A stretch of 11,088 nucleotides of DNA from NCBI GenBank assembly GCA_964565725.1, contig CAZMGA010000019.1, positions 1 to 11,088 on the forward strand, read 5' to 3'. The first letter of the stretch is position 1. Every line of letters begins with the position of its first letter. A model generated the notes under the pieces. It ran no database searches. It saw nothing but the letters and a program-made list of their open reading frames with translations, and was not told the DNA's origin. The position numbers and the translations under genes were made by a program. Source of the stretch: an uncultured archaeon. GTDB lineage: Archaea; Iainarchaeota; Iainarchaeia; Iainarchaeales; 0-14-0-20-30-16. This document shows, in pieces, positions 125 through 11,088 of this stretch.

Positions 125-1669
125 TTAAACTAAATATGAATTTACCGCATTCGAATAAATAGTATATGACTCGGGGTTATGAACATTTTGATTAGTATAA
201 GAACCATTAAAAACAGTATTTAATATATTATCATACACATCAATATATTCATCAATTAAATTACCTTTTTGAGATTTAACCCAATCATTTATTGCTTTTC
301 TAGTAGATATATTTTTGCCAGGAGTTATAGACAAAGCAATAACTTTTGTATTATTTTTTTTTGCTAAATTATATATTGCTGTTAAATTTTTTTTAACGCC
401 AGATATATTTATAGAAGTTGATCCAATATCATTTGCACCACCCATAACAAAAATATAATCATATTTTTTTCCTGAATTATATTCAGCAGTTAATTTATCT
501 AACATCCATTTAGTGCTTTTTCCAGATTCTGCAATTTTAGTAATTTCGTATTTAGATTTATCATAAATATTATTTAATTTAGGGTAATAACCAACAGTGA
601 TAGAATCTCCTAATAAAAGTATTTTAGTTTTTTCATTAGTCGTTTTTACTGTTTTTGTTTTATTTAAGAAAAAAAAATCATATATAGAATTATAAAATTT
701 AGGCCAATTAAAATTACTAGAACTAGAAGATGATTTTTTCCACACATTGTAATCATTATTAGAAATTTCTGCTAATCTTGTTTCATTATTTATATTAAAT
801 TCAATATATTTAGAATCTAAAGATGCTTCACAAAATAATTTATCCCAACCATCTACTTCAATATAAACAAAAAAATCATTTACTTTATTTATTTTATAAC
901 TGGAAGAAGTATCCCCAACTCTTTCATTATATTTTTTATTTAAAATGATTTTATCATCATATTCAGAAGGTTTAAGTAAATAAGTTTTACATTGAGTTGT
1001 AGTACCTATTGTACCTTTAATATATGTAGAATAGTTATCTAAATCATCTAATTTAATTAAATCCTCATCAGTAATTTTCAAAATTTTTCCTTGTGAAAAA
1101 CCAGTTTGACAAACAGCTTTACCATATTCATTAACAATTACTATTTTTCTGTCATCTTCAGAAATATTAGCTTTATAGGGTTTTACAGATTGATTATACC
1201 CATATGTTCCTTTAAAATTAAAACCTGATAAATCATTATTAATATTACATTCTTGAATATTTAGAGGATCAAATCTATAAATATAAAATCCTTCTTTATT
1301 ACTTTGTGTTTCAAATTTTATACATCTATAATGTATTTCTAAATTATTTTTAATTTTAAAACACATATAATTATTATTTAATTTATTAGATTGACTTGCA
1401 CTACAAACTTCATTATTAGAATTCCAAGGATAAATTACAGTATAATTATTATTAGTATTATTTATTTTATACAAAACATATGGCGGACCAACATTTTCAT
1501 TAAAATTTTTAAAATTTTTAAATTCTCTAGTAACTATAAAGTCAGATATATCTAAATCATTTCTATAATTACAGTCCCAAATATCTAAAGAGAATACAAA
1601 AGAAAATGACAATATTGTTAACAAAACTAAAAAAATATAATTTAATTTATTAAAACTCATAAATATCAA
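125..1669 (-). CDS. Secreted SGNH/GDSL-family hydrolase (esterase type) with an N-terminal region of three Cys-bracketed repeats
   Basis: 514-codon ORF ending in TAA (125-127). There are two candidate starts: TTG 1667-1669, which overlaps the upstream TGA as TTGA, and ATG 1658-1660, which lies 5 nt after that stop. The N-terminus has a signal-peptide-like h-region (NYIFLVLLTILSFSFVFS). The C-terminal third carries the SGNH blocks: I ILLLGDSITVG (Ser356, codon 602-604), II ESGKS, III FVMGGANDIG (Asn413) and V NVHNP (His497, codon 179-181). A poly-Ser linker (res 313-318) separates the two halves. Confidence 0.9.
   Translation of the reverse strand: MIFMSFNKLNYIFLVLLTILSFSFVFSLDIWDCNYRNDLDISDFIVTREFKNFKNFNENVGPPYVLYKINNTNNNYTVIYPWNSNNEVCSASQSNKLNNNYMCFKIKNNLEIHYRCIKFETQSNKEGFYIYRFDPLNIQECNINNDLSGFNFKGTYGYNQSVKPYKANISEDDRKIVIVNEYGKAVCQTGFSQGKILKITDEDLIKLDDLDNYSTYIKGTIGTTTQCKTYLLKPSEYDDKIILNKKYNERVGDTSSSYKINKVNDFFVYIEVDGWDKLFCEASLDSKYIEFNINNETRLAEISNNDYNVWKKSSSSSSNFNWPKFYNSIYDFFFLNKTKTVKTTNEKTKILLLGDSITVGYYPKLNNIYDKSKYEITKIAESGKSTKWMLDKLTAEYNSGKKYDYIFVMGGANDIGSTSINISGVKKNLTAIYNLAKKNNTKVIALSITPGKNISTRKAINDWVKSQKGNLIDEYIDVYDNILNTVFNGSYTNQNVHNPESYTIYSNAVNSYLV
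128..628 (-). other. Segment encoding the SGNH catalytic domain of the downstream hydrolase (res ~348-514)
   Basis: The GDS, G, GxND and H blocks occur in canonical order and spacing (see the CDS entry). Confidence 0.85.
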
Positions 1670-4600
1670 CTTAATCCCGTAGATTTCAAATCATTATTAT
1701 ATGCTAAAATAAATGGAGAATTATTTTTTAATGTTCTATGATCACTTAAACCAATATAACCCCAATCAAAACCACTTCTAGGATCACCTTTTGCAGCTAA
1801 TTCAAAATGTGCAATAACAGCAGTATCTGAAATATCTTTTATTAATCCTCTATCTTTTATATCTTTTAATAATTTCTTTAAAGATTCATGTTGTTTTAAT
1901 GTGTAAGGATAGCCTCCAAAATTTATACAATGTCTTAAATCTATAGCTATTGAAAGAGTATTTATAAGAATATCTTTACAACTTTTATCATTTGTTTTAC
2001 AACCCGCATGATTTGCACCATAATCTTCAGAAACTAATTTAAAAATTTCTCCAGAACAACCTATATAATAATGACTTGAAGTTTTTCTTGCGTCCCAATC
2101 ATGAATACAATTATTTACCGCAACATCATCAGTATAAGTAGATTTTTCCCAACCACCATCGTGTAAAACTACAAAACCATATGCTGCTCTTTTAGTAGTG
2201 TTTTTAGCAATTCTTTTATCATCAAAATATTTAGTATTAACCTTAATATAATTAGTTTGTAAAGGCATTACAGAATCTATAGATATTAAATTTTTAGATA
2301 ATTCAGGTCCTAATTTTGTTGTTATAGGTTTAGGTAATGCAGAATAACTTAAACATTTTTCTGATTCATTATTTAAATAATTTAAATACTCAGTCCAATA
2401 CAAATCAATAGATTGATTTTTACTTTGATTTCCTTTACATTTATTAGTATCTGGTATATTTCCAGAACTATCTACACAACCAGGGCCCACAACATAAGAT
2501 TTTACTGTTAATTCTAAATCTTTTTTGTTAGTATAAATAGAATATAATAAAGAAGCTTGATACATAATAGATAGTTCTGCTTTTGTTCTAGGATCTTTGT
2601 TTAATATCCCTTTACCATCATATAATAAACCACCTTCTTTTTGATACATTTTTCCAGTGTTACAAGTTAAGTCATACAATTCATTAAAATTTTTAATATT
2701 TAATTCTTTAAAATCATCACTATTAAAATTAAATACACTTGAAAATTCAGAATATTTTCCTTTAATAATATTTTTAGTAAGATCACAAAAAGTTTCAGGC
2801 TTAAGTTGTCCCAAACCAACAGCATAACTTTGAGAAACAATCATAGGATTAAATCTAGATTCTTTATATGTTTGTGCAATTAAATTTTTTGCATCCATTT
2901 TACCATTAGTTTTTTGTTTTAATATATCTCCATATTTAATAAATAAATCTTTATAATGAGTACAACCTATAAGTGGCTGTGTTGCGTTTGTTGAATTGGA
3001 AGATGAAGTACTTGTAGGAATTGGAGCCAAAGTATTAGCCCCACTATTGTCAATTAAACCATCTGAAATATATCCTTTAGTTATATTTTCAGTATTACAA
3101 AAGTTTTGTAATATTTTGTTAGATTCTAATTCTTTAACAGTACCAATATATTTATTTTCATTATTTGGATCTACAGTTAAAATCATAGTATAATAATGAT
3201 TTCTAACAAAATTATCTGGCAATATAAATTCAATACTTTTTGCAGAATTAAAACTTTCTTTAGTCATAAGTTTAGATGTTCCTTTATATGCTAAATCTGC
3301 TAATACTCCTGCAACTGCACCTCTTAACATACCTTTTGCAAAATTCCATATTTTTGTTCTTGTCAATGTTTTTGATTCTACATCTTTAATCAAAGCTTTT
3401 AAAGCATCATCATCTATATCGTCTACAACAGTAGCTGGTGGTGTATTAGGTAAATTTTTAATTTTTAATTTTAAAACATCTCTTTCGGCTTGTATTTTTT
3501 TAATTTCAGTATCAATTTTTAAAAAATCATCATTTAATTGTTTAAGATTAGGACAAGGTGGTGTTTTTCCCATACAAGCTTTTATTTGGTTTGTTAATTG
3601 ACCTTTCTTTGGACCTAATTTTGTTGTTAATTCTTTATTTATTTCATTAATTCTTTTTACATCTGAAGGATCTGGTGTTGATGCAGTTCCTGGAGTAGTA
3701 ATTGTTTTAGGATTTCCAATTCTATCCCAAGTATCCTTATTAGTTAAATTTATTTTTTCATCTATAATTTTAATAAGATCATCCAAACTGCTTTTATATT
3801 GTTTATTATGTTTGTTTATTACTTCTGCAAATTTTGGATCTGTATTATAAAACTTTTTCAATAATTCATTTTTACTTGTTACATTATTAATTATATCTTT
3901 ATTTGCAGGATCGGATAATTTTTTAACAAACATGTCTATAAATTCATCTGCAAGTTTATTTTGTGAATAAGTGCCATTAGCTAAATTTTTTACACTTGTA
4001 TAACCTACTTCTGCACCTCTTACACCTGCATTTACTGTTGCACCTGTTGCAGCTGCCTCTAATTCATTTAAATAGGAAATATCTGTACTATCTTTTAAAG
4101 CTTTTTGAGCATCAGCAGAATCTTCATAATCTTCAAACATCCAATCAGTCAATATAAAATCATTTAATGAATCATGAACTTTATCTAAAGCATTTCTACT
4201 AGAATTTCCAGCATATACATTTAATCTATGATTTGCATAAAGTGTGGAACCTGCAAAAGATCCAACTATTACGCCACATTCAATACCTGCTTCAACCCAT
4301 AATGCAGGACTCATAGCTTTTCCTTTAAAAGCTAATTCTGCAAGCATACAAACCCCTGCAGATACTCCACTAGATACTCCTACTCTCAATCCCAAACCTT
4401 TATTTAAAGTTTCTACTACTGCTTTAGTATTATTTGCAGCACAATAATTATTAGAAACTTTACCACTAAAAGAAATATTTTTATTTTGTGCTAATTTATT
4501 TAAAACTTCACAACTGTTTATTCCTTCTTTTTCTCCTTCCCAATAAATTAAAGCTGAATAATTCTTATTACTTAAATCTGAATTTAATATACCTCCTAAA

Positions 4601-7600
4601 TAGGCTTCAGGAGATACTCCACAAGGTTTAAATTTAACAATTAATTGTTTTTCTTCACCATTTGTAGGTGTAAAAATAATTTTCAAAGGTAAGTTTTCCG
4701 AGTATGAAATTGCTTTATTAGGATCAGTAAAATTAACTCTTAAAACATATTCTTTAGTAGAAGCATTTACAAATGAAACATCATTTACTTCATTACCTAT
4801 ACTATCAATTATTTTTGCAGAATAGCCTTCCATTTGTGCAGGATAAAATGAAAATGAACCATAACCTGTTTTTGTCCCAGATATTGTAAAAGTACAATCT
4901 ATATCACCATAATCTACATTTAAAACATTACATCCTTTTAATTCATATTGTCCAGTAGTAGAATCTGATGGAGATACTACTTCAAATTCATTATTTTTTG
5001 CATTATAACAACCAGTAAAATTTCCTTGTAATGCAGATTTAATTACATTAACTAAATCCTTTTTATCTTTATCTTGTTCTAAATTGAAATTTTCATTAAT
5101 TACTACTACTACATTATTATTATCAAATTTTAATTTGATTAGATTTTTTCCAACATCCCCTTTGGTTAAAAATAAAGTATTATCTCTATCATCCAATACT
5201 CTTTCTGTACCAAATAATTCTTTTGAAACAAAATCAGATAAAGGTTTAAAAGTATATTTTGTATCATAATAGACAAATGCAGGTTTAAAACCAAAAGCAC
5301 TATCTGCTAAAATTGTAGTATCTAAAGGCAAAAATAAAGCAGCATTGTTTACAGTTCTTTTACATTCTTCTGTATTTTCCTTTTCAAATTTAACTATTAT
5401 ACTATAATTATCTGATTGTGCTATGTTATCAACCACATTAAAAAAACCATTTAATGTTACAGTATATTTTCCACAACCTTTAAAATTTGGTTCAATAAAT
5501 AATACATTATAATTTGAAGTAGATTTCATATTTTCAAAAGAATAATTATTAGGCAAAATATTTACTGTTTTTAAATTAGTTTTTATTTTTTCTAATAAAA
5601 CATTATTAAAATATTCATTACTCAAATTATCTTCCATTAAATATACTACAAATGTAGAATCTTCTACCCCTATATTTCCAAATTCACATTTTGATTCAGC
5701 ACAAGTCTTTATATCTTTAGAATTCACAGCCAATTTATTTTTATATTCTTTAACATAACCATTTACTTTTTGAGATATAAATTCAGATGCTAATTTTCCA
5801 TCACAATAAGCATTACTACAATCCATAGATTTTGCAACTTTAGGATATAACAAAGATGTATCTTCGGAAGTATCACAATCTTTAATTGTTTTTTTAGTTG
5901 TAGGTTCTTGTGAACTACTTACTGCACTATCTCCAAATTTAAATTCGTAATTTATTTTTTTAGCATATGTTTTGTTTGTAGATAAGCCTCTTGCAAAAAC
6001 ATCTATAACTGAAGAATCATCTTGTTTTTCTTTAACAGCTACAACAGATTTTATTTCTGTTCTTTGCCCTGGTGTTAAAACTAAATTATTAGAACTTAAT
6101 GTCAAAATATTTTGTGTAGATACATTTTTAACAGATGGTAAATTTAATCTAACAGATTCTGCACAATTATTTATTACTACAATGTTTGAAGTAGTAGCAT
6201 TTATATTTAATTTTGTACTTTTAAATTTTAATATATTTTGAGTACCATTAGCATAAAATTCAACACATGTTGATGAGGATATTTGTGCAAATAAAGGTAC
6301 ATACTTAACTATTTGTGAATTATCTGCAACACTTGTTCCTTTTACTACCAAAACATATTCTGCAAAAGCACTATCAAAACTTAAACCTTCAACACCAAAA
6401 GATATTATTGAATTCATTCTTTGTTGTGGCCCCAATATTTGCAAATTAGTAGGTCTTGGTAAAATTTTCATTGCTACATTAGTTTTTTTAATTTGTGTTG
6501 TTCCATCCCAATTAGTAAATGGATAATCATTACCTAAAATAAAACTATCAGGATTATAAAAATTAGAAACTGTTGAATTTCCAATATTACTTAAACCCAT
6601 AGCATTTCCACTAGTCATAGTTTGATCTATATAATTATTATATTGCTGTGCGGATATTGTAATATTTTTTAAATTAGTAGTGCCATTATTAAAAATTGAT
6701 AATACAACTGAATTTAATTGACCAGTAGTAATATTATGTAATTGACTTGGTGAAACACTAATTATTAAATCTCCAAAACTATGAACTAAATTTAAAGTAA
6801 CAGGTAATTGTTTTTGGAAATATTCTGTATTAAAATTAATAAATGCTTCTACATTTACATTTGAAGAAATTAATGATTTTAAAGAGAAAGTATATTTTAC
6901 TAATTTAGTATCTCCTTTTTTTATAGAAGTTGTTGGTATTTGTAAATCAATTATTTCTGCTAAATTTACGTTTGATCTTAAAACTAATTCTGGATTTAAA
7001 TTAGAAATGTCAACTTCACAATTATTTTGTATTTGAATTTCACCAGCCACTTTTTGATTTACTCCATCATACAAAATCAAAGGCAATTTTGAAGGGTTTA
7101 TAGCCAAACAAGATGCATCCAAATTACTATTTGCAACGTAATTTATATGAATTACTTGTCTTACTATTTCTCCACCATCTATAATACCGGTCAAAGCAAT
7201 ATCTTGATCTCCATAAGCCAAATCATTTTCATCATAACTTACATTTACTATAATTTTAGAAGTTTTACTAGACATCAAATTAGTAGTAGAAATTCTATAA
7301 TCTATATTAAAATTAGTAGCATCATCTCTCATTATTTCTAAACCAATGTTCTTTAAATTAAATTTAGAAATATTTTTAAAAGGAATTTCATAACTTCTTG
7401 TTTTCATACCAACAGGTATTTTTATTTCAATTTCTGTATCAACATCAAATACACCAGTTCTAGTAATTAAAAATTGACCACTTGTAGAATTATGTCCTGT
7501 AGCCGAAACTTTATAATTATATATTCCGGATGGTAATTCATTAATCACATATTTTCCGTTTAATCCTAAATTATTTGTATTATTACCTTCTATATATTGT

Positions 7601-10410
7601 ATTACAGCATTATCTGAACTTACAAGATTTATTTTAGCATTAGAAATTTTGTTAGAACTATCAGAAATATCAAAAATAATTTGTTGACCTATATTGAAAG
7701 TATTTGCATTTAATTTTACTGTTAAAGGTTTTTGATTTTCAATATTAAAATTAAATTCTTTATTCATATTTAGTTCTTTAGAACTCATCAATATATTTCC
7801 TACACCCACATCATTAGTTCTAAAATATAATCTATATTTTTTATGTTCTCCTTTTAAGATTGACAAAGGAATATTCAAAGTGTTAAAGTTTAAATCTAAT
7901 GGTGAAAAATTAACTACATCATTACTAATATTATTTAATAATAATTTGTTAGTATTGTTATTTGTATTAAAATCAATATTAACATTTAAAGTTTCCAAAG
8001 CATAAAAATCAAAATCTAAAGCGTAAGTTTCATTTTTTATTGCTGAAAATGAATCATATTTTTTAAAACTATCAGAATATGAATAAGAATAACATAAATT
8101 TTGATTACAAGCAAACAAATCAGAAAAAACATTTATTGTTTCTTTTTTTGTTAAAGAATATAATCTTAACAATTTATTAGAATTTATTTCTGTATTTGGT
8201 TCACTATGATAAAGACCATCAAAAGAATTTACTCTATAATCTATATTGATATTTTCTAAATCTTTTGCATCATCTAATTTAATTTTTACTTTAATTTCAC
8301 TTAAACCTTTAGGATTATTAAAATACAAATTAACCCATTTATTTTTTATCCCGGGTCTTCCAAAAACTTTCAAATCTTTTACATTTGATTCTGTTGAATT
8401 TGGATTATAATGTAAACCATATTCTTTTATAGAATTAGATGAAATTACAGAATTAATACTATAAGGCAAGGAAATTATAGGAGTATCTTCTCCAACTCTA
8501 ATATGTACTTCCCCTTTATCTTGATTTCCAGGCCAAATTACAGTAAATTTTAAAAAATAATAATTACCTAATTTAACTCCATTAAGTTGATTTCCTTCTA
8601 AATCATAAACACCATCAAAACTTATTTTTGGATTTTTAGAACGTTCAAATTCATTTAATAAAACTTCCATTTCTTTTTCAACAGTCATTATTTTAGAATA
8701 AGATTCGTCATCATAAATTACATTTATTTCTACTTCTTTTGAACCGTTAGGATAAAATTCTATATTTCCTTCTAAAGTATTTCCATCAAATAATTTTGTA
8801 TTTCCTGACAATATTTGAACTTGTGCATTTTTTAATGGGTCTCCCAAAACATCATAAAAATAAACTTTACTCACATCTTCATTAGGAGTCATAACTAAAG
8901 AATAATTAGTTTCACCAGCGTTTAAGTCTAAATAATCTGACCCATATAATTTTTCACTTTGTGCACTAACCAATATTTTTTTATTAGCTTCTAAATTAAA
9001 AAATAAAGCGCCAGAAATAGATGTTTGTGTTTTTGTTAAATAAATAGGCAATGGAACATCATCTTCCATATAATATGCACTCACTTGAGATTGTACTGGT
9101 TTATTATCTATATCTACAGTAAATAATTGTAATCTTGCAATATTGTTAGGAGCCATTTTAGTTAAAACAATTGTTAATTGTTCTGTATTTGGGGTAATAG
9201 TTTTTACAGATGGAAAATAATTTCCAAATTCAGCAGTAGAAACATAACCACTTCTTTTTACATCTAAACCATTAAAATCTACAATTCCAAAAGCGTTAGT
9301 TATTTGTGTTGAAATTAATAACCCATTATCAGAATATAATGCAACATTTACACCTACTAATTCTTTATCTGTTTCATCTTTAACAATAACTTTTAAAGAG
9401 GTCCCACCAATACTTAAATTAATATTTATTGATTCTGCATCAGAAGTTAATTTTAAATTTCTACCATAATCTTCTGAATCCCATGTGATATATCCAGTTT
9501 TACTAACAACATATCTTACTATTGTTCCTTTCGGTATATTTTCTAATGCTTTTCCTTCATTATCAGTATAAATTTCAGAAAGTTTTTGTTGTGTTTTTGA
9601 ATTATATATTGTTATTAGCACATCTTTCAAAGGTTGATTATTAGAAGAAATATTAAAATTAATTGTTCCGGATTCTCCATTAGAAATTTCTTTTGGTTCT
9701 AAACCTAAATCTTTTAAGCCATTACCCGAAACACTTATTTGGTCATATAAATGATATCCATCTTTACTGATTATTACTTTTAAAGGTTGATTTAAAGGCA
9801 CATCTGTTAAATTTACATTACCAGATTCATCAGAAACACCAGAAAATAATAATGTGCCATCATCAGAAAAAATATTTATATCCGCATTAGGTACAAAGGT
9901 ATTATCTTTATTATCTAATAATCTAAAAGTCATTGAACCAGTTTCCAAATCTTTGCTTAAAACAAAAATTTGAGTTAGTTCTTTTGAAGAAATAACTATT
10001 TCTTCAGGTCCTACTAAATAATAATCTTCTAAATAAACATTAACTGTTAAAACATTTCCAATTTTTGTTTTAAATTTTATATTTTCAGAGCTCACTATTC
10101 CATTATAAACTACTTCTTCGCCAGATTTTAAAGTCAAAGTTATATTTGAAAGGGGATTTTGATCTTCATCTACAAAACTTAAAGACATATTTATTGTGCT
10201 ATTTACTGAGAAAAATAAAATTAAAAGAACGATTGCTACAATTAAAATTAAAATTATTAAATTAAACCACATTGGTGGAATTCCATGATTTTCTAAAAAA
10301 TCATTATATCTGTCAATAGGCAATCCTTTTTCTGATAAAAAGTCGCTCATAGCGTAATATTTTTCTTCTAATTTCGAATTAATATTTCTAAAAAAATCTC
10401 CAATCCCCAT
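1666..10410 (-). CDS. Giant (2,914 aa) N-terminally membrane-anchored surface protein: CarboxypepD_reg-like beta-sandwich repeats, unknown central domains, glycine-zipper hydrophobic pair, C-terminal lytic transglycosylase (SLT) + N-acetylmuramoyl-L-alanine amidase (Amidase_2)
   Basis: Uninterrupted ORF from ATG 10408-10410 to TGA 1666-1668, with an SD-like GAAAGGTG 7 nt upstream. Residues 1-47 are polar and residues 48-69 form a hydrophobic helix (WFNLIILILIVAIVLLILFFSV). Six ~80-aa repeats span res 74-585 and a seventh spans res 895-984, with signatures such as SDESGNVNLTDVP..KDGY, TDNEGKALENIPKGT..KTGY and NGKYVINELPSGIYNYKVSATGH. Glycine zippers lie at res 2005-2058. SLT motifs are present: E2517-S, GLGQL 2532-2536 and SYVVGPG 2638-2644. 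Amidase_2 motifs are present: FVVLH2750, SSHYYIGCSGEIFKLV, NTLSIAIDL and AH2868FELAAKGD2876P. My residue numbering was cross-checked by counting from both ends of the protein and against codons in the DNA. Confidence 0.95.
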   Translation of the reverse strand: MGIGDFFRNINSKLEEKYYAMSDFLSEKGLPIDRYNDFLENHGIPPMWFNLIILILIVAIVLLILFFSVNSTINMSLSFVDEDQNPLSNITLTLKSGEEVVYNGIVSSENIKFKTKIGNVLTVNVYLEDYYLVGPEEIVISSKELTQIFVLSKDLETGSMTFRLLDNKDNTFVPNADINIFSDDGTLLFSGVSDESGNVNLTDVPLNQPLKVIISKDGYHLYDQISVSGNGLKDLGLEPKEISNGESGTINFNISSNNQPLKDVLITIYNSKTQQKLSEIYTDNEGKALENIPKGTIVRYVVSKTGYITWDSEDYGRNLKLTSDAESININLSIGGTSLKVIVKDETDKELVGVNVALYSDNGLLISTQITNAFGIVDFNGLDVKRSGYVSTAEFGNYFPSVKTITPNTEQLTIVLTKMAPNNIARLQLFTVDIDNKPVQSQVSAYYMEDDVPLPIYLTKTQTSISGALFFNLEANKKILVSAQSEKLYGSDYLDLNAGETNYSLVMTPNEDVSKVYFYDVLGDPLKNAQVQILSGNTKLFDGNTLEGNIEFYPNGSKEVEINVIYDDESYSKIMTVEKEMEVLLNEFERSKNPKISFDGVYDLEGNQLNGVKLGNYYFLKFTVIWPGNQDKGEVHIRVGEDTPIISLPYSINSVISSNSIKEYGLHYNPNSTESNVKDLKVFGRPGIKNKWVNLYFNNPKGLSEIKVKIKLDDAKDLENINIDYRVNSFDGLYHSEPNTEINSNKLLRLYSLTKKETINVFSDLFACNQNLCYSYSYSDSFKKYDSFSAIKNETYALDFDFYALETLNVNIDFNTNNNTNKLLLNNISNDVVNFSPLDLNFNTLNIPLSILKGEHKKYRLYFRTNDVGVGNILMSSKELNMNKEFNFNIENQKPLTVKLNANTFNIGQQIIFDISDSSNKISNAKINLVSSDNAVIQYIEGNNTNNLGLNGKYVINELPSGIYNYKVSATGHNSTSGQFLITRTGVFDVDTEIEIKIPVGMKTRSYEIPFKNISKFNLKNIGLEIMRDDATNFNIDYRISTTNLMSSKTSKIIVNVSYDENDLAYGDQDIALTGIIDGGEIVRQVIHINYVANSNLDASCLAINPSKLPLILYDGVNQKVAGEIQIQNNCEVDISNLNPELVLRSNVNLAEIIDLQIPTTSIKKGDTKLVKYTFSLKSLISSNVNVEAFINFNTEYFQKQLPVTLNLVHSFGDLIISVSPSQLHNITTGQLNSVVLSIFNNGTTNLKNITISAQQYNNYIDQTMTSGNAMGLSNIGNSTVSNFYNPDSFILGNDYPFTNWDGTTQIKKTNVAMKILPRPTNLQILGPQQRMNSIISFGVEGLSFDSAFAEYVLVVKGTSVADNSQIVKYVPLFAQISSSTCVEFYANGTQNILKFKSTKLNINATTSNIVVINNCAESVRLNLPSVKNVSTQNILTLSSNNLVLTPGQRTEIKSVVAVKEKQDDSSVIDVFARGLSTNKTYAKKINYEFKFGDSAVSSSQEPTTKKTIKDCDTSEDTSLLYPKVAKSMDCSNAYCDGKLASEFISQKVNGYVKEYKNKLAVNSKDIKTCAESKCEFGNIGVEDSTFVVYLMEDNLSNEYFNNVLLEKIKTNLKTVNILPNNYSFENMKSTSNYNVLFIEPNFKGCGKYTVTLNGFFNVVDNIAQSDNYSIIVKFEKENTEECKRTVNNAALFLPLDTTILADSAFGFKPAFVYYDTKYTFKPLSDFVSKELFGTERVLDDRDNTLFLTKGDVGKNLIKLKFDNNNVVVVINENFNLEQDKDKKDLVNVIKSALQGNFTGCYNAKNNEFEVVSPSDSTTGQYELKGCNVLNVDYGDIDCTFTISGTKTGYGSFSFYPAQMEGYSAKIIDSIGNEVNDVSFVNASTKEYVLRVNFTDPNKAISYSENLPLKIIFTPTNGEEKQLIVKFKPCGVSPEAYLGGILNSDLSNKNYSALIYWEGEKEGINSCEVLNKLAQNKNISFSGKVSNNYCAANNTKAVVETLNKGLGLRVGVSSGVSAGVCMLAELAFKGKAMSPALWVEAGIECGVIVGSFAGSTLYANHRLNVYAGNSSRNALDKVHDSLNDFILTDWMFEDYEDSADAQKALKDSTDISYLNELEAAATGATVNAGVRGAEVGYTSVKNLANGTYSQNKLADEFIDMFVKKLSDPANKDIINNVTSKNELLKKFYNTDPKFAEVINKHNKQYKSSLDDLIKIIDEKINLTNKDTWDRIGNPKTITTPGTASTPDPSDVKRINEINKELTTKLGPKKGQLTNQIKACMGKTPPCPNLKQLNDDFLKIDTEIKKIQAERDVLKLKIKNLPNTPPATVVDDIDDDALKALIKDVESKTLTRTKIWNFAKGMLRGAVAGVLADLAYKGTSKLMTKESFNSAKSIEFILPDNFVRNHYYTMILTVDPNNENKYIGTVKELESNKILQNFCNTENITKGYISDGLIDNSGANTLAPIPTSTSSSNSTNATQPLIGCTHYKDLFIKYGDILKQKTNGKMDAKNLIAQTYKESRFNPMIVSQSYAVGLGQLKPETFCDLTKNIIKGKYSEFSSVFNFNSDDFKELNIKNFNELYDLTCNTGKMYQKEGGLLYDGKGILNKDPRTKAELSIMYQASLLYSIYTNKKDLELTVKSYVVGPGCVDSSGNIPDTNKCKGNQSKNQSIDLYWTEYLNYLNNESEKCLSYSALPKPITTKLGPELSKNLISIDSVMPLQTNYIKVNTKYFDDKRIAKNTTKRAAYGFVVLHDGGWEKSTYTDDVAVNNCIHDWDARKTSSHYYIGCSGEIFKLVSEDYGANHAGCKTNDKSCKDILINTLSIAIDLRHCINFGGYPYTLKQHESLKKLLKDIKDRGLIKDISDTAVIAHFELAAKGDPRSGFDWGYIGLSDHRTLKNNSPFILAYNNDLKSTGLS
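1741..2208 (-). other. Segment encoding the Amidase_2 (T7-lysozyme/PGRP-type N-acetylmuramoyl-L-alanine amidase) domain (res ~2735-2890)
   Basis: The putative Zn ligands are H2750 (codon 2161-2163), H2868 (1807-1809) and D2876 (1783-1785). The H-to-D/C spacing is 8, as in T7 lysozyme His122/Cys130. The conserved SSHYYIG..G.I..LV and N..SIAIDL blocks are also present. Confidence 0.85.
2476..2964 (-). other. Segment encoding the SLT (family-1 lytic transglycosylase) domain (res ~2483-2645)
   Basis: NLIAQTYKE2517SRFNP contains the catalytic Glu-Ser (Glu codon 2860-2862). AVGLGQLKPETF matches the GLMQ motif, and SYVVGPG matches the AYNxGxG motif. Confidence 0.85.
4237..4398 (-). other. Segment encoding paired glycine-zipper hydrophobic helices (res 2005-2058)
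   Basis: The sequence is GLGLRVGVSSGVSAGVCMLAELAF-KGKAMSP-ALWVEAGIECGVIVGSFAGSTLY. Helix 1 contains G2011xxxG2015xxxG2019 and helix 2 contains G2042xxxG2046xxxG2050xxxG2054. This region is a visibly GC-richer island in the DNA. Confidence 0.7.
8656..10191 (-). other. Segment encoding six tandem ~80-aa CarboxypepD_reg/PEGA-like beta-sandwich repeats (res 74-585)
   Basis: Each unit opens with an alternating hydrophobic strand plus D/N..P[LV]..[AV].[VI].[LI], for example LSFVDEDQNPLSNITLTL, LKVIVKDETDKELVGVNVALY and VYFYDVLGDPLKNAQVQIL. Most units contain a (T/S)DxxGxxx[FL] turn and a [KT]xGY strand. The repeats are diverged at the DNA level. Confidence 0.75.
10204..10269 (-). other. Segment encoding the single N-terminal transmembrane anchor of the giant protein (res 48-69)
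   Basis: A 22-residue uncharged hydrophobic run, WFNLIILILIVAIVLLILFFSV. It is preceded by a 47-aa charged tail and is the only such run in the first 2,000 residues. No signal-peptidase-like site follows it. Confidence 0.8.
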
Positions 10411-10461: not shown

Positions 10462-11088
10462 TTACAATAAAGGAGACAATAACCTAGCAAATGATTGCTT
10501 AAATTTAGTAAAAAAACTTTGTTTTCTCAAATCTACAATTTTTTGTTCTATTGTTTCATTTAAATCGTTTAAATAAATTTTTGTACAATTATCAGAAAAT
10601 TTTGAATTAAAAACAAAAGCTGTAACTTCAAAATCTAAATCTAAACTTCTAGAATCTAAATTTGTAGAACCTATAGCAACTACATCATCAGAAATAACTA
10701 ACTTATTGTGTAAAAAACCTTTTTGATATAAATAAATTTTAATTCCTGAAGACATTAACTCACTAAAATAAGTTTTAGTAGCCAAATCTACCCACAAACT
10801 ATCTGATTTTTGAGGCAAAATAATTTTTACATCTACGCCTTTCAAAGATGCAGATTTTAATGCAAACAACAAAGTTTCATCGGGTATAAAATAAGGTGTT
10901 TGAATATACAACTTTTTTTCTGAATTAGTAATTAACGAAAATAAAACAAATTTATTATTTGACCATTTTAAATCTGGCCCAGATGGAGTAATGTGAATTA
11001 CTGAATCTCCAAAATTATTTATTTTTGGATATAACTCTTTTGAATATATATTTTCCTTTTTAACAAAAGCCCAATCTTTAACAAATAT
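10462..11088 (-). CDS. cls: Cardiolipin synthase / phospholipase D-family phosphatidyltransferase, C-terminal part (5' end outside window)
   Basis: The supplied ORF begins at an internal TTG (10909-10911). My hand translation shows the same frame stays open for 59 more codons to the window edge (IFVKDWAFVKKENIYSKELYPKINNFGDSVIHITPSGPDLKWSNNKFVLFSLITNSEKK-LYIQTPYFIPD). The SGPD and TPYFIPD blocks are typical of Cls enzymes. An HKD motif is present, HNKLVISDDVVAIGSTNLDSRS (His codon 10708-10710), which would be the second of the two PLD motifs. The stop is TAA at 10462-10464. Confidence 0.85.
   Translation of the reverse strand: MFVKDWAFVKKENIYSKELYPKINNFGDSVIHITPSGPDLKWSNNKFVLFSLITNSEKKLYIQTPYFIPDETLLFALKSASLKGVDVKIILPQKSDSLWVDLATKTYFSELMSSGIKIYLYQKGFLHNKLVISDDVVAIGSTNLDSRSLDLDFEVTAFVFNSKFSDNCTKIYLNDLNETIEQKIVDLRKQSFFTKFKQSFARLLSPLL

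Follow-up and report, generated by a model that had tools for sequence, protein, structure and literature searches.

The window analysed here is the complete contig CAZMGA010000019.1, which comprises 11,088 nucleotides (nt) with a G+C content of 22-30%. It contains a giant open reading frame (ORF) on the minus strand, which encodes a protein of 2,914 amino acids (aa), P0006, matched at 100% by a protein in the NCBI records. The C-terminus of this protein carries two predicted peptidoglycan-cleaving domains: a lytic transglycosylase of the SLT family, followed by an amidase of the Amidase_2 family. The enzyme pair is the C-terminal cassette of a predicted giant surface protein anchored at its N-terminus. 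An earlier reading by a model, made from the letters alone (the sequence-only reading), had placed the tandem domains at nt 1741-2964. These nucleotides on the minus strand correspond to residues 2483-2890 of the giant ORF, and therefore the residue numbers of that reading follow the giant-ORF numbering. The analyses suggest that the protein is probably a surface-anchored device, with which an archaeon that has no murein may open bacterial peptidoglycan locally. The giant gene and its parts are as follows.

1666..10410, minus strand: giant ORF, 2,914 aa; homologues P0007-P0011 share 35-38% identity over 71-92% of the length
10204..10410, minus strand: cytoplasmic tail of ~50 aa and a single transmembrane segment (residues 51-69), a signal anchor by Kyte-Doolittle hydropathy
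8611..10188, minus strand: array of prealbumin/Ig-like β-sandwich domains (CarboxypepD_reg x3, SpaA, bMG3/Big_1), a putative extracellular stalk, from domain matches
4231..4404, minus strand: Gly/Ala/Ser-rich, moderately hydrophobic hairpin, residues ~2003-2060, from hydropathy and alignment
3046..3258, minus strand: pre-cassette module, residues ~2385-2455, from alignment
2974..3024, minus strand: Ser/Thr-rich linker PIPTSTSSSNSTNATQP, residues 2463-2479, from the sequence
2341..2964, minus strand: divergent GH23/SLT lytic transglycosylase domain, residues ~2483-2690, from Pfam, a profile search of the PDB, AlphaFold2 (AF2) modelling, and Foldseek
2599..2793, minus strand: family-specific insertion of the SLT domain, residues ~2540-2604, after motif II, from alignment and AF2 secondary structure
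1669..2325, minus strand: Amidase_2 domain with a clade-specific N-terminal extension, residues 2696-2914; the Pfam core at residues 2746-2877 corresponds to nt 1780-2175

Both domains scored above the Pfam gathering cut-offs, well beyond chance, and the family profiles and the AF2/Foldseek analyses agreed on the tandem arrangement that had been read from the letters. All the motifs listed by the sequence-only reading, and the Ser/Thr-rich linker, were found at the residues given. The Pfam SLT model (PF01464) matched residues 2499-2554 with 33.3 bits (cut-off 21.3; E 3.8e-8; positions 6-61 of 117 in the profile). The SLT motifs are E2517-S2518 (nt 2857-2862), GLGQL at residues 2532-2536 (nt 2803-2817), and SYVVGPG at residues 2638-2644 (nt 2479-2499). 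A single-sequence phmmer search of the cassette against the PDB sequences gave zero matches. Family profiles were therefore needed, and alignments of the amidase (A1) and of the SLT domain (A2) were built from the few available homologues. The SLT family profile identified MltC (1e-11 to 1e-12), Slt70 (1e-8), and MltE/EmtA (5e-6) in the PDB. In these alignments, YKESRFNP of the window protein lies on MQTESSFNP of MltC and ARQESAWNP of Slt70. The E2517 column corresponds to E217-S218 of MltC (the crystal 4cfo carries the E217Q mutation there) and to E478 of Slt70. The catalytic E and S are invariant in 6/6 relatives of alignment A2, as is the G-L-x-Q motif. Motif III (SYVVGPG) keeps the Tyr and Gly, while the Asn is replaced; its alignment to AYNGGAG of MltC is weak and non-significant.

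The sequence-only reading had suspected that the gap between motifs II and III was too long, and the comparison bore this out. The distance from the G of GLGQ to the S of SYVVG is 106 residues, as against 64 in the canonical SLT domain of P0005, and the family profile has ~47 extra positions relative to MltC. Two cysteines of the insertion, Cys2542 and Cys2583, are conserved and are present in all the giant homologues with this SLT domain. The insertion was modelled as mostly helical by AF2, with helices at residues 2538-2584 and strands at residues 2589-2605. Because it follows motif II, only the first half of the SLT model is matched by Pfam. The AF2 model of the whole domain has a mean predicted local distance difference test (pLDDT) score of 83.8. 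Foldseek searches of the PDB and BFVD with this model returned only MltE, Slt70, Slt of P. aeruginosa, MltC, MltD, and phage LT_GEWL proteins. These matches have a probability of 1.00 and E-values of ~1e-3; the TM-scores of 0.4-0.5 are due to the insertion. Phage virion transglycosylases appear among both the profile and the fold matches.

Compared with MltC, MltE/EmtA, and Slt70, the window domain shares the Glu-Ser pair that closes the first conserved helix, the GLxQ and aromatic-xx-G motifs, and a fold like that of goose lysozyme. It differs in the Cys-bearing insertion of ~40-60 residues, and in SYVVGPG in place of AYNxG. These results support the prediction that the domain is a divergent family-1 lytic transglycosylase, which keeps the catalytic residues. 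Only a handful of 1.84 billion cluster representatives match the SLT part at E<=1e-3.

The Pfam Amidase_2 model (PF01510) matched residues 2746-2877 with 48.9 bits (cut-off 26; E 1e-12; positions 7-129 of 131 in the profile). The amidase family profile identified AmpDh2, AmpD, and AmiD in the PDB at ~1e-10, and H2868/K2874/D2876 were aligned to H154/K162/D164 of AmpD. The active-site assignments of the sequence-only reading agree with these alignments: E2517 shares its column with the catalytic glutamates of MltC and Slt70, and H2868 and D2876 fall on H154 and D164 of AmpD. The AF2 model of the amidase has a mean pLDDT of 81.7. Foldseek returned Amidase_2 enzymes only, with AmpD (1e-7), AmpDh2/3, and AmiD ahead of XlyA, PlyL, peptidoglycan recognition proteins (PGRPs), and T7 lysozyme. 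The score against the NCBIfam AmpD equivalog (NF008758) was 31.7 bits, far below its cut-off of 143; the domain is thus not an AmpD orthologue.

An exhaustive HMMER search of the 1.84 billion cluster representatives identified 162 sequences at E<=1e-3 and 10 at E<=1e-30, and 152 of the wider relatives were aligned. The amidase/SLT clade of the window is rare among the cluster representatives. The zinc ligands H2750, H2868, and D2876 are invariant in 7/7 close relatives. Among the wider relatives, the H2750 column holds H in 78 of the 79 sequences aligned there; the H2868 column holds H in 143 and the D2876 column holds D in 140 of the 152; the K2874 column holds K in 112 of the 145 sequences aligned there. 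The column of the general-base Glu, which is E116 in AmpD and lies in SIGIEL/SIGIEI of AmpD and AmpDh2, is occupied by D2824 of the SIAIDL motif. This column holds Asp in 7/7 close relatives; in the 152 wider relatives, Glu occurs in 104 and Asp in 35. The sequence-only reading had described the amidase signature as intact. This stands for the zinc ligands and K2874, but not for the general base. Since all seven close relatives hold Asp at this column, the signature is a variant rather than the textbook one, and from the alignment the Asp is a conservative, recurring natural variant. T7 lysozyme likewise has no Glu at the general-base column.

A likeness to T7 lysozyme had also been read from the 8-residue spacing between the second His and the Asp. 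The spacing is 8 in the window protein, 9 in the close relatives, and 10 in AmpD, and the difference amounts to one residue in the length of a loop. As third ligand, the window protein has Asp, like AmpD and AmiD, and not the Cys of T7 lysozyme. Both the profiles and Foldseek favour AmpD/AmiD, and the T7-lysozyme likeness was rejected. The other amidase motifs are SSHYYIG (residues 2778-2784), GCKTNDKSCKD (2803-2813), and SIAIDL (2820-2825). The GCKTNDKSCKD loop had been called a Cys-rich insertion. It is only ~3 residues longer than its counterpart in AmpDh2, but the cysteines are real: C2785, C2804, C2811, and C2828 are invariant in the clade. Several further conserved cysteines are found in the SLT domain, and this pattern fits extracellular enzymes that might be stabilised by disulfides.

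The amidase resembles AmpD, AmiD, and AmpDh2-3 in the His/His/Asp triad, the Lys that precedes the Asp by two residues, and the fold. It differs from them in the Asp for the base Glu, the four cysteines, and the clade-specific N-terminal extension (~50 residues). It is also predicted to be extracellular, and is fused to a transglycosylase. Taken together, the sequence and model comparisons support a predicted zinc MurNAc-L-Ala amidase (MurNAc, N-acetylmuramic acid) of AmpD/AmiD-like type.

The rest of the giant protein forms the scaffold of this cassette. The transmembrane helix at residues 51-69 has a Kyte-Doolittle 19-mer mean of 3.6. Its position is the same in the window protein and in P0007-P0011, which together are the six closest giants; in P0012 it occupies residues 48-66. 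Residues 1-100 (nt 10111-10410) have a mean identity of 0.53, second to residues 601-700 (0.55). The conservation of the N-terminal tail and anchor hints that they interact with a partner in the cytoplasm or in export. The ~1,800 residues on the C-terminal side of the β-sandwich array have no Pfam match. They include the hairpin at residues ~2003-2060, which consists of two adjacent segments with two conserved Cys and an S.YANHR.NV tail. The character of this hairpin is kept in all the giants, and it might insert into a membrane or form a buried core. Between the hairpin and the pre-cassette module lies a stretch of low conservation, to which no domain model matches. The module itself consists of an amphipathic segment and a small domain (ILPDxFV...Y...G.Y.G.VKE...FC..EN..KGYI). 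The same module is found at the start of fragment P0001, and the cassettes diverge past it. The single transmembrane segment at residues 51-69, the Ig-like domains that follow it, and the conserved Cys of both enzyme domains fit an extracellular location, and the C-terminus would lie outside the cell.

Full-length relatives (P0007-P0012, 2,805-2,943 aa) were identified by a word-index search. P0007-P0011 are 35-38% identical to the window protein, and P0012 is 24% identical. The tips of these proteins are of different kinds. P0007-P0010 carry the insertion-bearing SLT domain followed by an SGNH/GDSL esterase domain; P0011 and fragment P0001 carry a GH73-like glucosaminidase followed by an amidase of the same clade as that of the window; the tip of P0012 is different from both. 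Three cassette types were thus found on homologous scaffolds. The clear case is the pair of P0009 and P0011 (loci L009 and L008), whose scaffolds are 63% identical over ~2,450 residues and whose tips are non-homologous. By this comparison, the pair represents a recent replacement of the cassette just past the conserved pre-cassette module. Between the window protein and P0011, the amidases share 47% identity and the scaffolds 38%. Because the tips of P0009 and P0011 are unrelated, and the window amidase is closer to that of P0011 than the scaffold is, the tip is an exchangeable module.

The tandem SLT and Amidase_2 architecture is not unique to the window protein, since it is shared by P0029. 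The domains also occur in other combinations: P0005 is a secreted protein of 722 residues that combines SGNH, SLT, and Amidase_2 domains; P0003 and P0004 are SGNH-amidase fusions; the amidase gene P0002 of locus L010 is directly preceded by an SGNH gene. P0013, a distant relative, is named as Ca. Micrarchaeota. In the wider amidase clade, members such as P0017, P0018, P0023, and P0029 are joined to N-acetylmuramidase, Peptidase_M74, canonical SLT, and calcineurin-like phosphoesterase domains.

The other features of the window are the following.

125..1660, minus strand: SGNH/GDSL esterase gene, 511 aa, starting at ATG 1660, downstream of the giant gene
10465..11088, minus strand: 3' part of a bacterial-type cardiolipin synthase gene (PLD; TIGR04265, 200 bits), cut by the contig end
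2-121, plus strand: end of a highly charged, low-complexity ORF (...KKDKKDEKKKDNLNLDLDLDSGSNQNETTDDDFELNLDLK*), which is truncated at the contig start and converges on the SGNH gene

The SGNH gene starts 5 nt past the stop codon of the giant gene, and the two genes are probably co-transcribed. No terminators were found in the window, including between these genes. A scan of the window for sigma-70 promoters gave fewer sites than in shuffled controls, an Rfam search of the window gave zero matches, and its tandem repeats are trivial.

The SGNH protein (511 aa) begins with a signal peptide and ends in an SGNH/GDSL esterase domain (~nt 128-640). The N-terminal ~340 residues contain Cys and match nothing; a comparison of this N-terminal half with that of P0002 gave zero similarity. 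Sequence alignment of the esterase domain showed that the GDS(I/L)T and GxND blocks (here GDSIT and GGAND) are invariant. The C-terminal His is present, and the DxxH block has no conserved Asp. The domain is homologous to the SGNH domain fused behind SLT in P0010, and to that of P0005. Its best PDB matches are GDSL-like acylhydrolases of Bacteroides, a sialate O-acetylesterase, acetyl esterases, and PatB.

Coupling of an SGNH esterase to a transglycosylase is also known from Gram-negative lytic transglycosylases and Ape1, and in this respect the window locus is similar. Unlike Ape1, the window SGNH protein matches the generic GDSL acylhydrolases and PatB, and the Asp of its DxxH block is not conserved. 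O-acetylation of MurNAc inhibits lytic transglycosylases, and Ape-type SGNH esterases are proposed to remove this group (PMC1199599); PMC7083599 describes Ape1 as a characterised O-acetylpeptidoglycan esterase. Since O-acetylation blocks transglycosylases and Ape-type SGNH esterases are proposed to reverse it, the recurrent pairing of SGNH and SLT is mechanistically sensible. By this analogy, the SGNH esterase of the window probably removes O-acetyl groups that block the transglycosylase, with the substrate taken from the comparison.

Conserved large ORFs of ~1,440-1,470 aa, with a C-terminal transmembrane anchor and no Pfam match, were observed in loci L005 (20647-25062), L006 (15674-20053), and L008 (10550-14866). 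They sit downstream of the giant gene, three genes away in L005 and L006 and two in L008. The window has no such ORF because the contig ends. An ORF of ~1,460 aa had been considered as the carrier of the missing amidase (cf. P0017, 1,459 aa). This was rejected, as the ORFs of L005 and L006 are not P0017 and have no similarity to the amidase; the trio of SLT, SGNH, and amidase is therefore not always found in a single locus.

The window contains three genes and none of them is an archaeal marker. The named homologues of its PLD are bacterial, so the PLD search gave no support for an archaeal assignment. Because of these two facts, the assignment rests on orthology and synteny. In the loci of the homologous giants, the gene order is an archaeal-type prolyl-tRNA synthetase (ProRS), RelA_SpoT/TGS, PLD, the giant gene, several ORFs, PAC2, and Alba. 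One giant-bearing contig also carries a thermosome gene; P0004 adjoins two PCNA genes; the contig of P0002 (L010) carries L35Ae and diphthamide synthase. The PLD that precedes the giant gene in L006/L007 (upstream of P0007) shares 53% identity with the window PLD, and the order of PLD followed by the giant gene is common to the window, L006, L007, and L009. The PLD may be a bacterial-type lipid gene within a DPANN genome. Scans of genome, metagenome, and viral contigs for exact 41-mers were empty, and a back-translated pattern run against genome contigs yielded no relative.

These comparisons strongly indicate an archaeal producer, which would have no murein. The most likely producer is a DPANN archaeon of the Pacearchaeota/Woesearchaeota type. 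The sequence-only reading had proposed that the producer has no murein of its own, and the archaeal loci of the homologues and the PLD-then-giant synteny support this indirectly. It had also reported that no immunity-like small ORF follows the giant gene. This holds for the window, where the next gene is that of the 511-aa SGNH esterase. No immunity protein would be needed, because the producer would have no substrate for the enzymes.

Giant SLT surface proteins of Pacearchaeota and Woesearchaeota are already known. Castelle et al. 2021 described a giant murein transglycosylase family (fam00969) as widespread in these lineages, and proposed that it binds and degrades bacterial walls (PMC8204110). 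The extracellular murein transglycosylase proteins, of up to 3,000 aa, were reported to be specific to Pacearchaeota/Woesearchaeota, and earlier sightings of giant SLT proteins by Rinke 2013 and Castelle 2015 are cited in the same paper (PMC8204110). Large GH23 proteins were also found in metagenome-assembled genomes of Woesearchaeota by Vigneron et al. 2022, who suggested predation (PMC9723730). The window protein resembles fam00969 in its size (~3,000 aa), the predicted extracellular location, the SLT/GH23 domain, the small-genome archaeal setting, and the proposed action on bacterial walls; this likeness is to the published description. It differs in the Amidase_2 domain added after SLT, in the appended SGNH gene, and in the exchange of the cassette among relatives. 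The texts of PMC8204110, PMC9723730, and PMC12352652 make no mention of an amidase in giant SLT proteins, and the text of PMC8204110 makes no mention of GDSL, SGNH, esterase, or glucosaminidase. Relative to these published descriptions, the predicted SLT and Amidase_2 tip, the separate SGNH partner, and the swapping of cassettes on a shared scaffold would be new.

Strock et al. 2025 reported modular archaeal peptidoglycan hydrolases, which are secreted and prominent in Nanoarchaeota, and two haloarchaeal cases of which are bactericidal (PMC12352652). The window protein is similar to these in being a predicted murein-specific enzyme of a murein-free archaeon; however, theirs are small secreted proteins, whereas the window protein is an anchored scaffold of 2,900 aa. 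It would be missed by that survey, because a cell-wall-binding domain was required.

The organisation of the window family also resembles that of other very large proteins. Polymorphic toxins and contact-dependent inhibition proteins, such as CdiA, Rhs, and MafB, have a long scaffold, a pre-toxin module, and an exchanged C-terminal effector. The window family likewise has a long conserved scaffold, a pre-cassette module, and a C-terminal effector that varies among close relatives. In contrast to these toxins, the window has no cognate immunity gene, the trafficking domains and repeats are absent, and the effectors are only wall-degrading. Phage T7 gp16, tape-measure proteins, and tail lysins also bear an SLT domain in a very large protein and must breach the wall from outside; the window protein has no homology to phage virion transglycosylases beyond the SLT fold, and no phage context.

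A mechanism can be proposed from these features. The N-terminal signal-anchor helix would hold the protein in the archaeal membrane, and ~2,400 residues of β-sandwich and other domains would extend outward, followed by the Ser/Thr linker and the two-enzyme cassette. The SLT domain, with E2517, would cleave the MurNAc-β-1,4-GlcNAc bond (GlcNAc, N-acetylglucosamine) to give 1,6-anhydroMurNAc ends. The zinc amidase (H2750/H2868/D2876, with K2874 and D2824) would strip the stem peptides from MurNAc or anhydroMurNAc; by removing stem peptides it would therefore also remove the cross-links. The secreted SGNH esterase might unblock O-acetylated MurNAc for the transglycosylase. The result would be a local hole in the sacculus of the bacterium touched, which may serve attachment, penetration and feeding, or killing. 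We infer enzymatic activity of both domains from their conserved sites; the biological purpose (attachment/feeding, killing, or scavenging) is not decidable from sequence.

Several points weigh against this mechanism. The SLT domain is very divergent, with only half of the Pfam model matched and Foldseek values of E ~1e-3 and TM 0.4-0.5. The general-base column of the amidase holds Asp (D2824) rather than Glu. No recognised cell-wall-binding domain is present in the giant protein, and the topology is somewhat uncertain because of the moderately hydrophobic hairpin at residues 2003-2060. The SGNH domain is closer to generic carbohydrate O-acetylesterases and to PatB than to Ape1, which is not among its PDB matches at E<=0.1. 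The three-gene window has zero archaeal marker genes, and its PLD has only bacterial named homologues, at ~40% identity.

These points bear on different alternatives. If the producer were not an archaeon, the contig might come from an ultrasmall bacterium (e.g. one from the candidate phyla radiation, CPR), a mobile element, or a phage, and the enzymes would remodel the wall of the producer itself or function as a lysin of the virion. The lack of an archaeal marker among the three genes and the bacterial-type PLD would fit such an origin, as would the occurrence of SLT domains in phage internal, tail, and tape-measure proteins and the weak matches to PHROG endolysin and amidase families. However, orthology and gene order are shared with contigs that carry thermosome, Alba, PAC2, archaeal ProRS, PCNA, and L35Ae genes. 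A tblastn search against 50,697 phage records gave zero matches, an exact-match scan of IMG/VR was empty, and no phage structural genes were found in the window or the related loci. A bacterial or mobile source is therefore very improbable, and a phage or prophage origin is not supported, given the tblastn result and the weakness of the PHROG matches. Still less credit can be given to the view that the two domains are adhesion modules that bind murein and catalyse little or nothing, like the non-catalytic PGRPs, which would make the protein a pure adhesin. The replacement of the general-base Glu by Asp, the divergence and large insertion of the SLT domain, and the wording of "bind and degrade" and "attachment" in PMC8204110 are in its favour. 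The zinc ligands, the Lys, and the Glu-Ser of SLT are nevertheless invariant in the clade, while non-catalytic PGRPs lose a zinc ligand. The Asp at the base column recurs in 35/152 relatives whose site is otherwise kept, and the repeated pairing with an SGNH esterase with intact GDS and ND blocks points to chemistry, not to binding alone.

Two other alternatives accept the archaeal enzymes and differ in their use. The cassette, or the whole protein after shedding, might be a diffusible antibacterial weapon, similar to a bacteriocin-like peptidoglycan hydrolase. Secreted archaeal peptidoglycan hydrolases do kill bacteria (PMC12352652), and the same domains occur in small secreted proteins (P0005, P0002-4); the Ser/Thr linker before the cassette could be a cleavage site, and the polymorphism of the C-terminal cassette recalls the polymorphic toxins. 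This is unlikely, though it is the alternative with the most weight: the transmembrane anchor and the ~2,400-residue scaffold are kept in every family member, which is hard to explain for a simple lysin, and no processing site or release mechanism was identified. Somewhat less likely again is nutrient scavenging, by which an auxotrophic archaeon would digest peptidoglycan that is free or from dead cells, and take up the amino sugars and the amino acids of the stem peptides. AmpD, AmpDh2/3, and AmiD are reported to act on anhydro-muropeptides. A transglycosylase followed by an AmpD/AmiD-like amidase would copy the bacterial recycling route, and the amidase is indeed closest to AmpD, AmpDh2/3, and AmiD, of which the AmiD entry 3d2y is titled with anhydro-MurNAc-L-Ala as the bound substrate. 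The use of bacterial wall amino acids has been proposed for Pacearchaeota (PMC11537232). On the other hand, bulk digestion needs no anchored scaffold of 2,914 aa, and no transporter or catabolic gene was found in the window or the syntenic loci. Scavenging is not exclusive of local wall opening by an anchored protein, which is still the explanation that we prefer.

The proposal of a surface-anchored wall-opening protein can also be carried further. The giant protein might be the contact organ of cross-domain episymbiosis or predation, by which a DPANN archaeon would live on bacteria, with an exchangeable tip (transglycosylase and amidase, transglycosylase and esterase, or glucosaminidase and amidase) matched to the chemistry of the host wall. 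Once the wall is open, the hairpin and the amphipathic pre-cassette segment would enter the bacterial membrane and form a conduit, as with the SLT-bearing ejection protein gp16 of phage T7. This extension is doubtful at present; if it were true, the cassette type would predict the host range.

In summary, sequence, structural, and synteny analyses suggest that the window may encode a wall-opening toolkit beyond a single transglycosylase. It would comprise an enzyme that cleaves glycan, an amidase for stem peptides, and an esterase of O-acetyl type, which are reshuffled on a scaffold of ~2,400 residues. The locus provides an experimental handle, with a soluble cassette of 450 residues and its partner esterase, and the predicted enzymes could be sources of antibacterial lysins with no constraint of self-toxicity. 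The different cassette types offer a possible read-out of the wall chemistry of the target. The principal argument from genomes that DPANN archaea may live as parasites or predators of bacteria, and not just of archaea, comes from such giant murein-cutting proteins.

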